DNA of 64,000 nt from Nitrospirota bacterium (lineage in GTDB: Bacteria; Nitrospirota; UBA9217), in assembly GCA_963737155.1 (NCBI GenBank), contig CAVTRN010000002.1:1568001-1632000 (forward strand). The letters are read 5' to 3'. This document shows positions 52,765 to 60,974 of the stretch, piece after piece (position 1 is the first letter of the stretch; every line of letters begins with the position of its first letter). Under the pieces are notes generated by a model. That model was not told the DNA's origin. It ran no database searches and was given only the letters and a program-made list of their open reading frames with translations. The position numbers and the translations under genes are program-made.

Positions 52765-52986
52765 ATGAGAGTTAAAGACCTTCGCGAAATCTCTACCCTG
52801 AGCACACCTGAGAAGATCTTGTTGGTCGAAGATCTTTGGGACAACATCTCTTCGGACGAATCTTCCGTTATTGTGCCGGAGAGTCACAAGGGCGAACTGG
52901 ATAAACGGTTCAAGCAGTATCAATCTGCGCCTGGCACCCTCCTGTCTCTTGATGACCTTAGAGCAAGAATAGAAAACAGAAAATGA
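52765..52986 (+). CDS. addiction module antitoxin component (TIGR02574-like)
   Basis: LSTPEKILLVEDLWDNI...HKGELDKR; RBS AAGGAG; overlaps the toxin start. Confidence 0.85.
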   Translation: MRVKDLREISTLSTPEKILLVEDLWDNISSDESSVIVPESHKGELDKRFKQYQSAPGTLLSLDDLRARIENRK

Positions 52987-53294
52987 AGTATAGTCTTAGT
53001 TTTCTGCCTGAAGTCGAGGATGATGTTATCAGCGGCTTTTCGTGGTATGAAGCGAAATCGCCGGGACTTGGCGAAGAGTTTCTTCGAATGTTTTATGCGT
53101 GCGCCAGTGATATTCCCCGTAACCCCTTCCTTTACCAAAAAATTCATAACGATTTCAGACGTTGTTTGCTCAGGCGCTTTCCTTACGCCATCTATTTCAT
53201 AATTAACAACGATCATATTATCATAACTGGCCTATTCCACTGTGCGCGTGATCCCTGCGCTGTTGAATCAAAGATGCGGATTCGAAAAGAGTGA
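52983..53294 (+). CDS. RelE/ParE-family toxin
   Basis: WYEAKSPGLGEEF, RRCLLRRFPYAIYF, LFHCARDP. Confidence 0.88.
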   Translation: MKYSLSFLPEVEDDVISGFSWYEAKSPGLGEEFLRMFYACASDIPRNPFLYQKIHNDFRRCLLRRFPYAIYFIINNDHIIITGLFHCARDPCAVESKMRIRKE

Positions 53295-55461: not shown

Positions 55462-57390
55462 ATGGACGCCATAAAAGACATGGGAAAACAGCTTAAAAGC
55501 CCACAAGGCCGGCTAATTTTAGCAATCATACTTTTTAGCGTGGCCTTTTACGTTTGGCAGCAATATACGATTCCTTCCGGTCCTGAGCGATTCACGATCT
55601 CCTACAGCCAATTTATGGATCAGCTTAACGTTGCAAATATAAAATCTGTATCCATCCAGAAACTGCAGGTGAATGGCGAATTCATAAAGAAAACGGATCT
55701 CACCCCCACCGGCTTGACAAAACCTGTTGCGGTTCAGGAATTCGTGACTTACCTCCCGACCTTCCAGGGGCAAGACCTTTTGAAACAGCTAAGCGCGAAA
55801 AACGTTGCTATTAACATAGAACCACCGGAGGAGGGTTCGCCGATATGGGGTTTCGTACTGGGCATATTGCCTTGGGCTCTCATACTGGGGTTTTGGTTTT
55901 TCATGATGCGGCGCGCGCAGCAGATCCAGGGCGGAGCCGGCGGGCTTTTTACGTTTGGCCAGAGCAAAGCCAAACTTTATGACATCAAGCGTCCAAAAGT
56001 GACGTTTGAGGATGTTGCAGGGTTGGCCAATGTCAAGCAAGAGCTCAGGGAATCGATTGATTATCTGAAAGACCCGTCGAAGTATATAAAGATAGGCGCC
56101 AAGGTCCCCAAGGGCGTTTTGCTTATTGGTCCTCCGGGCACTGGGAAAACTCTTCTTGCCAGAGCCTCGGCGGGCGAAGCAGGGGTCCCGTTTTACAGCA
56201 TCAGTGCCTCGGAGTTTATCGAGATGTTTGTAGGCGTCGGCGCTTCCCGGGTCCGGGATATGTTTAAAAAAGCCCGCGATACCCATCCGAGCATCATTTT
56301 CATCGACGAAATTGATTCCGTCGGACGCACGCGGGGTGCAGGGTTTGGGGGAGGACATGATGAGCGTGAGCAGACGTTAAACCAGCTTCTGAGTGAAATG
56401 GATGGGTTCAACCCGCACGAGGAGGTCATCGTCATGGCTGCGACAAACAGGCCTGACGTTCTGGACCCCGCGCTTCTGAGGCCTGGCAGGTTCGACAAAC
56501 ATATTGTGGTAGACCGTCCGGGATGGAAAGAGCGCAAAGCCATTCTCGAAGTCCACGTGAAGGGCAAGGTCCTTGACGCCGACGTCAACCTCGATACCAT
56601 TGCCCGCGGAACGCCGGGCATGACCGGCGCGGATCTTGAGAACCTTGCGAACGAGGCGGCGCTCGTAGCGCTTAGGAAAAACGAAAGCATGATTCATATG
56701 AGAAACTTCGAGGAGGCTCGGGACAAAATTCTCATGGGCAGCGTGCGCGAGGAGACGATTACCGATGAGGAAAAGAAGATCACCGCATATCATGAAGCGG
56801 GGCACGCGCTCGTTGCTAGGAAATTGCCGGGTACGGACCCGATCTATAAGGTAAGCGTTATCCCAAGGGGCATGGCCATGGGCGTCACCCAACTCCTGCC
56901 GGAAGAGGATCGGCACTATTATCCCCGTACGTATTTAATGAACAAGCTGAGTGTCGCGCTCGGCGGCAGATGCGCCGAGAAGATTGTATTCAACGACGTG
57001 AGCAGTGGGGCCCAGAGCGATTTGAAGGAAGCAACATCGCTTGCAGAAAAGATGGTGGCCCAATGGGGCATGAGCGATAAAGTTGGACCAATGAACCTTG
57101 GCAGAGGGGAAGAGCACCCCTTCCTAGGACGGGAACTTGCGCAACCTAAGCGCTACAGCGATGAAATGGCCTGGATCATGGACCAGGAAATTCAGCGGCT
57201 GATTCACGAAGCCGAAAATAAGGCGATGGATATCCTCATGAAGAACAGGAATGTCCTCGAACCCCTTGCATTGGCACTCATGAAAGAAGAGGTCCTCGAC
57301 AGAACGGAAATCGAAAACATTATAAAGGAAACGCAGGAAAAGTCTGCTTCGGGAAAACCGGGGTCTGACCTGCTGATCGGTTCAAGCTAA
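55462..57390 (+). CDS. ftsH: ATP-dependent zinc metalloprotease FtsH
   Basis: Two TM segments, [40 protein letters not shown]. Confidence 0.96.
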
Positions 57391-57769
57391 CAGAAGTTCT
57401 GGCGTGGTTGCATACATTCAACGGATTGGGAGCGTTCAAAACACCCTGCTCACGAAATAAACAGAAACCTTTATTCCTCAGTGATAAATTGTCTGGATAG
57501 AAAAGCTCATGGGAATTAACTAGCTCAACCGAGACCTGGGTTTCACCAATTCAGAAACTATCCAAAAAAAACACTTAGAATTTAATATTTACAACTGGAA
57601 GAAGGGATGCGGATCAAGATGAGTTGGATAGAATCAAACTCTCAAAACAATATCGACCAGGCATGCTATCCGTGATTACCAGGCAGAAAAAAAAGGGTAT
57701 TCGTAACGTAGTGTGGATTCCCTCTGGTTTAATGCCCTGTGCACATCGTGGCAAAATCGTAAAATAGTG

Positions 57770-57798
57770 TTGAAATTCACAAATTGACAATGTATACT
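57770..57798 (+). promoter_or_regulatory. sigma70-type promoter inside the ISL3 left end
   Basis: TTGAAA-N17-TATACT, 30 nt upstream of the MNT start. Confidence 0.55.
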
Positions 57799-57827
57799 CA
57801 AATCGTAATCTAGTGTGGGAGGCACTT

Positions 57828-58133
57828 ATGTTAAAAACTAATATTCAAATCCCGATGATAAAAATCGAAGAGTTCTGCCTCAAATGGAAAATCAAGGAAT
57901 TTTCTTTGTTCGGTTCGGTACTCACGGAAGATTTTCGTCCCGACAGCGACGTGGATGTGCTGGTGACGTTCGAGCGGGGTGGCAGTATTACGTTTGACAA
58001 TCGCGTGGACATGCTGGACGAGCTGAAGGCAATATTTGGAAGAGAAGTTGACCTTGTCGAGAAAAAGGCCATCAGCAATCCTTTCCGCAGGCACTCGATC
58101 CTCACGACAAAGGAGGTCCTGTATGCGGCCTAA
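57828..58133 (+). CDS. minimal nucleotidyltransferase (MntA-like antitoxin)
   Basis: LFGSVLTEDFRPDSDVDVLV (GSX10DXD), FGREVDLV; RBS GGAGG. Confidence 0.9.
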   Translation: MLKTNIQIPMIKIEEFCLKWKIKEFSLFGSVLTEDFRPDSDVDVLVTFERGGSITFDNRVDMLDELKAIFGREVDLVEKKAISNPFRRHSILTTKEVLYAA

Positions 58134-58485
58134 TGAACGGGATGCCGCATATCTCCTGGACATGCTTCAGGCAGCAGAGAAGGTCCGCCGTTTTGTTAAC
58201 GGGATAAAACAGGAGGAGTTTGCTGAAAACGGGGTGCTACGTGATGCCATCGAACGCAATATCGAGATCATCGGAGAGGCCGCTCGCAAAGTGACGGAGG
58301 CGTTTAAAAAGCATCATCCTGAAATTCCTTGGCGCAAGATAATTGCCCAGCGCAACGTGCTAGTTCACGAGTACGATAAGATTGGTGTGGATGAAATGTG
58401 GAGTGTGGTGACGTTTCATGTACCAAACCTGATAGAGAATCTTGCGCCGTTGATACCTCCCACGCCGCCGGAGGTCGAATCCTAA
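58123..58485 (+). CDS. HEPN/DUF86 RNase toxin (HepT-like)
   Basis: YLLDML, IEIIGEAA, PEIPW, RNVLVHEY (RX4HXY). Confidence 0.9.
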   Translation: MRPNERDAAYLLDMLQAAEKVRRFVNGIKQEEFAENGVLRDAIERNIEIIGEAARKVTEAFKKHHPEIPWRKIIAQRNVLVHEYDKIGVDEMWSVVTFHVPNLIENLAPLIPPTPPEVES

Positions 58486-59795
58486 TGCCTATCAATATTC
58501 TCAATCTAAACGCCTATGAGATCATAAATTTCAAAGAAACAGAGCATGATTATCATATATATGCGAGGACCAAGGTACCGTCAACCATATGCCCTCACTG
58601 CGGATCAAATAATGTCGTAGGGCATGGGTCCGATGACATCACTGTAAAAGATATGACGATACATGGCAAGCGAGTAGGCGTGTATATCGGCGTACGTAGG
58701 TATAAATGCCGGGGCTGCGGTAAAACCTTTACTGAAGCACTGCCTCATATAAATAGCAAAAGACTAATGACAGATCGACTTGTTCAATATGTCGGCGGCC
58801 AGGCACTTAGCCGTACTTTCACAAGCATAGCAGATGAGATTGGAGTCGCAGAAGGTACTATACGGAACATTTTTCGTGACTATGTGAACGAACTTGAAAA
58901 AACAGTCCGATTCGAGATACCACAGTGGATGGGTATCGATGAGATTCATATTATTAAGAAACCCAGAGCTGTCATCAGCAATATCGAGAACAACACAATC
59001 GTAAATATCTTACCTGATCGGAATAAAAAGACTGTCATCAAATATCTAAACGGTCTTGATGGTAAAGATCGTGTTCGATATGTCGCAATGGATATGTGGA
59101 AGCCCTATCGAGATGCTGTCAATACAGTATTCCCAGACGCTACCATAGTCATAGACAAGTTTCATGTTGTCAGAATGGCAAACGAGGCGGTTGAAAAAGT
59201 GCGTAAATCAATTCGGCAATCTCTCACGTCAGCCCAACGTCGAACACTCATGCACGATCGATTCGTCTTGTTGAAGAGACAAAAAGACTTGTCTGCAAAA
59301 GAAATACTTATACTAGCGACATGGTTCGCCAATTATCAGGATATTAAAGAGGTTTACGAGGTTAAAGAGCAATTCTTCAATATATGGGATGCAAAAGACA
59401 AAAACGAAGCGCTTGGCTTATATAACGGATGGCAGCAGAGCATACCTCAAAATCTTCTCGAAGCCTACCATCCATTAATTACTGCAACAGAAAACTGGCA
59501 GGAGGAAATTTTTGCGTACTTTGATCATAAAATCACGAACGCTTATACCGAGTCTCTCAACAATTTAATAAGGGTCATGAATCGATTGGGCCGTGGTTAT
59601 TCCTTTGACGCCCTTAGAGCAAAAATTCTCTTCACAGAATCTATGCACAAGATTAAAAGATCTGCGTTTAAAAAATGGCCAGCAGATAACTTAATGTGTT
59701 TCCGGACGGAATCCACATTGGACAATCAGCCGGAAATTAATTACGGGGTGGATATATCCACACTAACAGAACTGATTGAGTCCGGAGCCTTTTGA
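58485..59795 (+). CDS. ISL3-family transposase
   Basis: CPHCG...RYKCRGC zinc finger, MGIDE, VAMDMWKPY, IDKFHVV, TNAYTESLN; TAATG coupling to the HEPN stop. Confidence 0.93.
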   Translation: MPINILNLNAYEIINFKETEHDYHIYARTKVPSTICPHCGSNNVVGHGSDDITVKDMTIHGKRVGVYIGVRRYKCRGCGKTFTEALPHINSKRLMTDRLVQYVGGQALSRTFTSIADEIGVAEGTIRNIFRDYVNELEKTVRFEIPQWMGIDEIHIIKKPRAVISNIENNTIVNILPDRNKKTVIKYLNGLDGKDRVRYVAMDMWKPYRDAVNTVFPDATIVIDKFHVVRMANEAVEKVRKSIRQSLTSAQRRTLMHDRFVLLKRQKDLSAKEILILATWFANYQDIKEVYEVKEQFFNIWDAKDKNEALGLYNGWQQSIPQNLLEAYHPLITATENWQEEIFAYFDHKITNAYTESLNNLIRVMNRLGRGYSFDALRAKILFTESMHKIKRSAFKKWPADNLMCFRTESTLDNQPEINYGVDISTLTELIESGAF

Positions 59796-60062
59796 CCTCC
59801 CACCCACACCAAATTACGAATACCCAAAAAAAATAGGACACAGCAATGATTCACCGGAAATTGTGGGTCTACTCTCTTTAAATACAGAACAATTAAAGAT
59901 AGATAATTTAATAAACATCCACAGCTGCATTGGAGAAAGGCTAACAATTATTGACTATACAAAGGAGGGATTACTTGCTTTTGACTTTATTCTACAATGT
60001 GGAAGCCCATGCTGAAACCGGAAAAACGGTTTTTCACGGGTACATCGGCTGCTTTATGACGC

Positions 60063-60275
60063 TTATTTTAAGGCCTTATCACTATGTCTTCGCTCTATAT
60101 TTTTTGGTTTTGGAGGAGAGTCTGTTGCCATTGATCGCATAGGATCAATCCCCACACGTATCCATTTGCCACGCCGTCGAAAGGCTGCGAAAGGGTAAGT
60201 CGCTACAAGTTCATCAAAACGAGCAGCCTCTATAAAACCATGACTTTGGTTTTCGAAAATGACATGGATTAACAT
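60063..60275 (-). CDS. small GSU3473-like protein
   Basis: MLIHVIF...FRRRGKWIRVGIDPMR...ERR; RBS AAGGAGG. Confidence 0.65.
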   Translation of the reverse strand: MLIHVIFENQSHGFIEAARFDELVATYPFAAFRRRGKWIRVGIDPMRSMATDSPPKPKNIERRHSDKALK

Positions 60276-60974
60276 AGAAAGCCCTCCTTTTTTAGAAAAA
60301 TAAAATCCTTCAAGGCCAAATGTGAATATTAACACAAAACATCTTTCATACTAAATACGTAGGCGGTACGATATCACTTATAAATATAAGTATAATAACA
60401 TCTCTGCTTTTTGTCAAACCCGGCACCGGAAATCGTGCTCGACGCTCATCAGCAGAATCTGTGGTTGAAAAAAACATTTAAGGAAAAGTCTTGTATTTCG
60501 GGCATAGCCATTATGCTGATTAAAAGTTGTATTACGCCACGTTTGCCATGGCAATCTACATTTCACCGTCGCATACAATTTAGATGACAAACCTGACGGT
60601 GACATAGATCACACAATTCTACAGTGATGAGATCTGGTAGCCGTCCGAAATAATAAACAAATACTGATTCGTTATTTAAAAAAACATCCACGGAATTTGC
60701 CGAGGAGTCCAAGGTGTTTGACTCCCCTCAATCTACAACCTTCAAGCACCTCAACATGGTTTTAGATATAACGATCGAACATGACAGTATGATACAACTT
60801 TAGCTCCTTACCATGGATTAATAGTTCCAATTTAGATTCTGAATATAGTAAGTCGCCTATAAAGTAAAAAACCACCTGTCAACTTGAATGCGATATAGAA
60901 TCTTATTTTCCCAAAGATTTGAAAGTCTTCATTTCGTTCAGCACGCAGCTTTGAAATCGCTTTTCAACAGTCTG

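Follow-up and report, generated by a model that had tools for sequence, protein, structure and literature searches.

An ISL3-family transporter insertion sequence with an MNT/HepT toxin-antitoxin pair between its left end and its transposase gene in a Nitrospirota bacterium

Organization, classification and mobility of the element

The window analyzed here is a stretch of 64,000 nucleotides from the Nitrospirota bacterium assembly GCA_963737155.1 (contig CAVTRN010000002.1, positions 1,568,001 to 1,632,000 of the forward strand). It contains an insertion sequence (IS) of the ISL3 family in which a toxin-antitoxin (TA) pair of the MNT/HepT type lies between the left end and the transposase gene tnp (Table 1). 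A check of the sequence places the mobile element proper at 57695-59825 (2,131 bp), with the A8 direct repeat outside both ends, where a preliminary description of the window had found it. The insertion site is intergenic, approximately 300 bp downstream of an ftsH gene. The 22-bp terminal inverted repeats (IRs) on the left (IRL) and right (IRR), given there with 18 identical positions, are present and match at 19 of 22 (86%). The genes are tightly packed: mntA and hepT overlap by 11 nt, and the hepT stop codon TAA (58483-58485) shares its final base with the tnp start codon ATG (58485-58487), both as described before. A GGAGG sequence is located within hepT, 10 nt ahead of this ATG.

Table 1. 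Features of the ISL3 element in the window (positions are those of the window)
Feature	Position	Strand	Remarks
Left 8-bp target-site duplication A8	57687..57694		Outside the element
IRL, left terminal inverted repeat, 22 bp	57695..57716	+	19/22 match to IRR
Internal IR-core copy 2 (element position 63)	57757..57772	+	Its end shares 3 bases with the start of the -35 box; candidate transposase-binding site
Sigma-70-like promoter TTGAAA-17-TATACT	57770..57798	+	Position kept across the ISL3 lineage whatever the cargo
Internal IR-core copy 3 (element position 109)	57803..57822	+	Continues into GGGAGG (57817-57822), the ribosome-binding site for mntA
mntA-like minimal nucleotidyltransferase antitoxin gene, 101 aa	57828..58133	+	GSX10DXD intact
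hepT-like HEPN RNase toxin gene, 120 aa	58123..58485	+	RX4HXY intact; GGAGG at 58470-58474 inside
tnp, ISL3-family DDE transposase gene, 436 aa	58485..59795	+	Zinc ribbon, helix-turn-helix, DDE domain
IRR, right terminal inverted repeat, 22 bp	59804..59825	-	Pairs with IRL
Right 8-bp target-site duplication A8	59826..59833		Outside the element

The MNT protein of 101 residues matches PF01909 and PF18765, and the HepT-like HEPN protein of 120 residues matches PF01934, all at the Pfam cut-offs. The two genes form an mnt-hepN pair with both motifs, GSX10DXD and RX4HXY, that define type VII TA systems (PMC11586414; this and the other papers given by PMC number are cited from excerpts). The catalytic motifs are intact, in line with the preliminary description: G29-S30-X10-D41-X-D43 in MNT, R77-X4-H82-X-Y84 in HepT and D152/D224/E356 in the transposase. 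The last three residues are invariant in an alignment of three transposase sequences, and we take them to be the DDE triad. In a sequence search of the PDB, 1wot and 3nyb were the sole matches of MNT, and no match to HepT was found at E 0.01.

ISL3 elements have IRs of about 15-40 bp that begin with GG. The window element shows the traits of this family, namely a zinc-ribbon/helix-turn-helix DDE transposase (PF01610, PF14690 and PF13542; NF033550 at 302.6 bits against a cut-off of 180), 22-bp IRs and AT-rich 8-bp duplications. The closest named transposases in a plasmid collection are those of ISPpu12 (41% identity), ISSm4 (38%) and ISKpn25 (34.5%). All 1,068 plasmid transposase matches are below 60% protein identity, and 5,426 E. 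coli genomes gave just two partial DNA matches (66%). Identity to the other full-length ISL3 transposases of the same genome is 21-25%. The transposase groups with the ISPpu12/ISKpn25 branch rather than with other ISL3 elements, in a quick tree whose deep branching is unsure. Passenger genes lie inside the IRs and move with the element, as is characteristic of a transporter IS, and the element is a transporter IS of the ISPpu12/ISPst2/ISSm4/ISKpn25 branch of ISL3. Assignment to the TA-bearing transposons of the Tn3 family was considered and rejected; none of the three genes inside the IRs matches Tn3 or resolvase families.

The genome contains three near-identical full copies with the same IRs, all with the TA pair; such copies were to be looked for according to the preliminary description. 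The copy at C1:1562714-1564844 is identical to the window element (C2:1625695-1627825) over 2,131 bp, and that at C1:135348-137478 differs from it at 2 positions. The A8 duplication alone could be due to chance; the insertion is taken as genuine because the two further copies are flanked by distinct exact 8-bp duplications, TTATTATT and TCTAAAAT. The target duplications of the three copies are thus 8 bp long, AT-rich and all different. Four public soil metagenomes were also searched. One contig, from another soil sample and approximately 98% identical, covers mnt, hepT and the beginning of tnp. Two new flanks follow the right end in two other soil samples, and the flank of the third copy follows it in another. 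The best-matching soil sample may be the source sample and is not counted as independent. The genome copies and the spanning contig bear out the earlier description of a TA enclosed by the IRs and show that it moves together with the transposase. The element transposes as one 2,131-bp unit and is recently active and autonomous.

A DNA search of 40 relatives with positions 57000-60500 of the window matched ftsH and the downstream segment and gave no orthologous empty junction. No circle joints (0) were found in the four soil contig sets, which consist of low-depth contigs from which absence cannot be shown, and no fusion promoter across the IRR-IRL junction was evident by eye. A search with the IR pattern matched 3 of 64 family genomes, this genome included. 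In the corresponding metagenome scan a single 1.4-kb contig was found, its right end 76% identical and no cargo visible on it. The second copy of the element (L020:2166-3431) is located approximately 280 bp from another transposase-like gene.

The left end and the cargo slot in related elements

Relatives of the element were surveyed at 88 loci (80 genome loci and 8 phylum loci), and the counts given below refer to the 37 that are delimited by an IR pair. An exact 8-bp duplication is present in 28 of them. The interval from IRL to tnp ranges from 586 to 5,324 bp, and all 37 carry cargo in it. A left IR adjoining tnp with the TA outside, the arrangement that the preliminary description had set against its own proposal, was seen in 0 of 37. 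Where the distance could be scored (six relatives without an ATG start were left out), the cargo ends within 12 nt of tnp in 18 of 31. In the annotated records the cargo likewise ends at the tnp start, with an overlap in ISSm4 and gaps of 4 nt in ISKpn25 and 21 nt in ISPpu12. Because of these three elements, neither cargo genes nor their coupling to tnp are new for ISL3, and the TA-tnp coupling is not peculiar to the window element as had been supposed.

The left 133 bp of the element consists of IRL, two internal repeats of the IR core, the -35 and -10 boxes between them and a ribosome-binding site. The -35 box starts in the last three bases of the repeat at element position 63, while the -10 box stops 4 nt before the repeat at position 109, which itself enters the mnt ribosome-binding site. 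The first internal repeat (repeat 2) is found in 31 of the 37 relatives, the second (repeat 3) in 27 and both in 24; the maxima in 200 shuffles were 3, 3 and 0, and the right ends gave 2/37 and 3/37. A sigma-70-like pair with its -35 box at positions 60-90, mostly 75-76, is present in 21 of 42 left ends (shuffle mean 1.46, maximum 6). It recurs alike with Fic, restriction-modification (RM), VapD, PIN, DhiA-like and MNT/HEPN cargo. The left end of ISKpn25 also has a -35 box TTGACA at position 76, a -10 box, a third repeat and GGAGG. Sequence comparison shows the left 133 bp to be a lineage-wide platform, after which come an exchangeable cargo slot and tnp. Because elements with unrelated cargo, and ISKpn25, share this layout, the promoter did not arrive with the TA.

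The predicted promoter is the only plus-strand sigma-70-like site in 57380-60000; the scan gave 7 sites in total against 6.3 in shuffles, which is not significant by itself. No promoter-like site was found inside hepT at a lax threshold. A single transcript for mnt-hepT-tnp is therefore likely, and the earlier view that tnp has no promoter of its own is retained. It had further been proposed that expression of the transposase follows TA autoregulation. The data do not support this part in the form given, and the actual regulation is probably the reverse: the promoter belongs to a conserved IS left end that is independent of the cargo and bracketed by IR-core repeats, and such a layout argues against antitoxin autoregulation as the main control.

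It is important to consider the autoregulatory explanation in full. According to it, MntA or MntA-HepT acting on the promoter at 57770 would set transposase expression, and the element would be self-addictive. The single predicted promoter, the coupled genes, two short palindromes in the promoter and the purifying selection on hepT described below are all compatible with this. In addition, the Shewanella MntA binds its own promoter and represses it approximately 1.6-fold, and the Shewanella pair stabilises a plasmid (PMC4621449). However, the same promoter layout is present with unrelated cargo and in ISKpn25, and Pfam gives no separate DNA-binding domain for the 101-residue MNT. The second palindrome has been lost from the decayed sister cassette, and the RelE/Phd pair of a sister element of this genome is on the strand opposite to tnp. 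As to self-addiction, the three copies complement one another in trans, and TA copies have decayed both here and in a sister genome. An antitoxin that acts in trans limits strict addiction to the last copy or to a carrier plasmid, and the decayed copies indicate that TA modules can be lost. Control by the antitoxin is thus regarded as an unlikely explanation.

Transposases usually bind the part of the IR that is copied in the internal repeats. For this reason autorepression by the transposase is the simplest reading, and the transposase would be a likelier repressor of the left-end promoter than MNT.

The cargo itself was classified by Pfam, with several labels backed by NCBIfam and PADLOC. 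MNT/HEPN-type cargo was found in 8 of 37 relatives (in one of them only HepT was detected, and in one it is truncated). Together with DUF2442/DhiA-like (3), AbiEii (3), DUF433/PIN (1) and RM (4) cargo, the strict count of TA, RM and abortive-infection families is 19/37. It rises to a broad count of 29/37 with Fic (6, mostly weak scores), VapD-like (2), DUF6036 (1) and Abi_2 (1, also PD-T4-5-like). The remaining cargo is metal resistance (2) and other or unknown (6). Such families occur in the cargo of 16/34 (strict) or 26/34 (broad) relatives and in equal-length outside flanks of 2/34 or 4/34, the other three of the 37 having no flank for this control. The corresponding Fisher p values (2e-4 and 1e-7) overstate the difference, since the elements are kin and somewhat different open reading frame filters were applied to cargo and flanks. 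Cargo pairs or small operons at L093:5525-5987, L035, L047 and L097 gave no informative Pfam, NCBIfam or PADLOC match, and these slot genes are candidates for undescribed TA or defence modules.

A further 47 loci were found on viral contigs, 25 of them with an IR pair. One of these (L166) is spurious and another (L140) duplicates L040; neither was scanned with Pfam. All 24 genuine delimited elements carry cargo, and over the 37 genome and 24 viral-contig relatives its size is 414-5,324 bp. In the 23 that were scanned the cargo is mostly phage-type or unknown (for example PAPS-reductase-like, YopX, Lar and methylases), with a TA family in 1, which counts against a slot that is specific for TA.

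This spectrum is relevant to a second explanation, in which the slot is a general position for useful cargo and the TA persists chiefly because it defends the host against phages, addiction and regulation being side effects. It would account for the RM (4), AbiEii (3) and Abi_2/PD-T4-5-like (1) cargo of the bacterial relatives, for the type I RM of ISKpn25 and ISSm4, and for the mostly phage-type cargo that viral-contig relatives carry instead. The MNT also matches the PADLOC candidate PDC-S09 (2.6e-26). However, PDC-S09 is itself a candidate system, HepT has no PADLOC match, and metal-resistance cargo (2/37) and unknown cargo are present as well. Defence as the main role is likewise regarded as unlikely.

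Cargo exchange, other loci of the lineage and the proposed mechanism

A quick maximum-likelihood tree was calculated for 45 transposases. A clade of 99% support unites six closely related transposases whose cargo is MNT-HepT (3), MNT with a different HEPN family (1), type II RM (1) and VapD (1). The MNT-HepT label changes 6 times on the tree, at least 4 of the changes being forced by well-supported branches, and it clusters no better than shuffled labels (134 of 500 were as low). Cargo is shown to have been exchanged between closely related elements.

The HepT of the window is 28-36% identical to other ISL3-linked HepTs. Its closest relatives among the fetched loci (41-52%) are in genomes of the same family, outside autonomous ISL3 elements: between type III RM genes, beside groEL and inside an IS1595-type element. 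The window HepT being nearer to these copies, the pair was probably captured locally, from the gene pool of the host lineage. The relative inside the IS1595-type element (L023:2027-4870, genome G011), an mnt-hepT pair closely related to that of the window, is preceded by a seemingly decayed ISL3 left end with promoter and adjoins a segment homologous to positions 59943-60300 of the window. In the window genome an internally deleted ISL3 remnant (L188:250-1440, C2:880950-882140 of G000) has a RelE/HTH pair between direct repeats of approximately 35 bp of the transposase 3' tail. This remnant may preserve a trace of TA capture near the right end.

This genome contains ten loci of the lineage with a TA, and all three distinct transposase-bearing elements of the branch carry one. 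The two others besides the window element both have exact 8-bp duplications: one of 3,305 bp carries Gp49/HTH_37 and a MucR-like gene, and one of 2,177 bp (L017) has RelE/Phd on the strand opposite to tnp. In the former, a 296-residue cargo gene product (L016:6454-7344) with a ROS/MucR zinc finger and a long basic repetitive tail is encoded between the Gp49/HTH_37 pair and the transposase. Insertion of the latter splits a gene that we take to be ParE-like. Two cassettes that lack a transposase are present as well, one of 780 bp in which mnt-hepT has decayed and one of 1,083 bp in which AbrB/PIN is intact. The remaining loci are remnants: a left end with a broken hepT, and two right ends that each have a TA pair beside them (Gp49/HTH and RelE/HTH). 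Two sister genomes have AbrB/PIN cassettes of approximately 740-750 bp with the IRs of the window element, with a stop codon in the toxin gene of one. A 304-bp element resembling a miniature inverted-repeat transposable element (L187:104-407, C1:11103-11406 of G000) has lineage IRs and an 8-bp duplication and no gene. The lineage element at L128 has beside its right end a pair that is presumably an addiction module. The insertions at L017 and L128, in or just upstream of TA-like operons, may reflect AT-rich targets or clustering. Elsewhere in the window, two integrase-core-type transposase remnants, of which Pfam confirmed one, enclose a separate TA-like pair at 52765-53294 (PF09720 addiction-module component and a weak match to ParE).

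Selection on the pair was assessed by comparing the window with one isoform contig of approximately 98% identity (23 differences on the spanning contig). The ratio of non-synonymous to synonymous polymorphism (pN/pS) is 0.17 for mnt and hepT together (10 synonymous and 6 non-synonymous codons, binomial p 0.0006) and 0.18 for hepT alone, while mnt alone is not significant (p 0.12). This suggests that the toxin is maintained by purifying selection. The value for hepT counts against the third explanation, that the TA is a neutral hitch-hiker, a small two-gene operon that fits the slot and is tolerated until it decays. The frameshifts and truncations in the TA copies of transposase-less cassettes, and the rapid turnover of cargo, would agree with it. 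However, TA/RM/abortive-infection families are far more frequent in the cargo than in the matched flanks, and every distinct branch element of the genome carries a TA. The hitch-hiker explanation is considered very improbable.

The explanation that we favor combines an active transporter IS, a cargo-independent left-end platform, a putative single transcript, autorepression by the transposase and a locally captured TA under selection, and its probability as a whole is estimated at about 0.6. One transcript would cover mntA-hepT-tnp, and translation of tnp would be coupled to the last cargo gene, keeping the transposase low. The transposase would bind the internal repeats and repress the left-end promoter that serves both cargo and tnp. 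On entry into a transposase-free cell, TA and transposase could then rise together and be damped afterwards. MntA neutralises HepT by AMPylating the tyrosine of the toxin motif, and by analogy with the family Y84 would be modified here. The TA would have been taken into the slot from the gene pool of the host lineage and then held under purifying selection.

Several points weigh against this explanation. The MNT and HepT scores of 54.6 and 36.5 bits are both under the NCBIfam MntA/HepT equivalog cut-off of 60. Binding of the transposase to the internal repeats is proposed solely from their likeness to the IRs. The promoter holds two 9-bp palindromes, at 57771 and 57783, and given these and the Shewanella MntA precedent (PMC4621449), control by MNT on top is possible. 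The selection test compares one contig pair over 16 codons, and the transposase tree is a quick version with long outgroup branches. An IR pair delimits just 37 of the 88 loci, the other 51 having no confident pair owing to short contigs or decayed ends. Counts and p values overstate independence since the relatives are kin.

Comparison with known systems

The arrangement had been thought undescribed for ISL3. Passenger genes and their coupling to tnp are already known, so that only the TA cargo keeps this standing: the open-access literature search, with ISfinder and TnPedia outside its reach, gave no account of TA cargo inside ISL3 elements. Nor did it give one of a repeat-bracketed left-end promoter, and a prior description is possible. 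The excerpt of PMC10214660 mentions merely a TA 'downstream of Tn3 and ISL3'. The bias of the lineage toward TA, RM and abortive-infection cargo was likewise not found in print.

There is as yet little explanation of how small TA operons come to occupy so many dispersed chromosomal sites. The window element is a 2.1-kb, recently mobile and fully bounded TA carrier and may be a vehicle that spreads TA or restriction genes. A stronger version, which we hold as possible and rather doubtful, is that the lineage is a dedicated TA/defence shuttle, in which a transposase-repressed left end ties TA output to transposition and transposase-less cassettes are mobilised in trans. If so, a burst on entering a naive cell would give 'take me or die' behavior at the scale of an IS and without a resolvase, and a major undescribed route would exist for chromosomal TA loci, of which there are ten here, to multiply and move.

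The pair resembles the type VII HepT/MntA systems in that the antitoxin gene comes first and overlaps the toxin gene and both motifs are present; it differs in scoring under the equivalog cut-offs and in the lack of a PDB match for the toxin. In the Tn3 family, TA families are also found beside transposition genes (Lima-Mendez et al. 2020, PMC7157771). They were independently acquired (ParE, Gp49/HTH_37, PIN and HEPN/MNT), and read-through into the transposase, expression from transposon promoters and a burst have been proposed for them (PMC7157771). However, the Tn3-family elements, 39 of 190 with a TA, have a resolvase and a res site (PMC7157771), whereas the window element is IS-sized and without a resolvase, and the candidate repressor in it is the transposase itself. 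The hypothesis of the TA as part of the transposition module thus becomes testable in the smallest possible system. Natural controls exist in closely related transposases with other cargo and in cassettes without transposase. The transposase-less cassettes of this and the sister genomes resemble mobile insertion cassettes, which are non-autonomous and IR-bounded, in sharing one IR family and 8-bp duplications; they differ in carrying TA pairs (MNT/HepT and AbrB/PIN), and the window element itself is autonomous.

Within ISL3, the metal/permease-type transporter IS ISPpu12, the closest named element found (41%), has its cargo upstream of tnp as here. ISPst2 has the same IR signature (its IRL begins GGGTATCCGG), an 8-bp duplication and cargo upstream of tnp (PMC6305408). 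An 8-bp duplication is also found in the mer element Tn7546 (PMC9782665), and the ISL3-like transposon with fosB forms circles (PMC5559704). The cargo of these four elements is for resistance or transport, and the excerpted accounts mention no TA cargo. ISKpn25 and ISSm4 share with the window element a cargo operon that lies between IRL and tnp and ends at the tnp start. They differ from it in their transposases, which are just 34.5% and 38% identical, and in a type I RM operon of approximately 6 kb in place of the 0.66-kb MNT/HepT pair. In ISKpn25 (8,154 bp with an 8-bp duplication; size and open reading frames from PMC8796155), the layout of the left end is the same as in the window element, and the left-end platform also predicts how cargo would be expressed in catalogued relatives such as ISKpn25.

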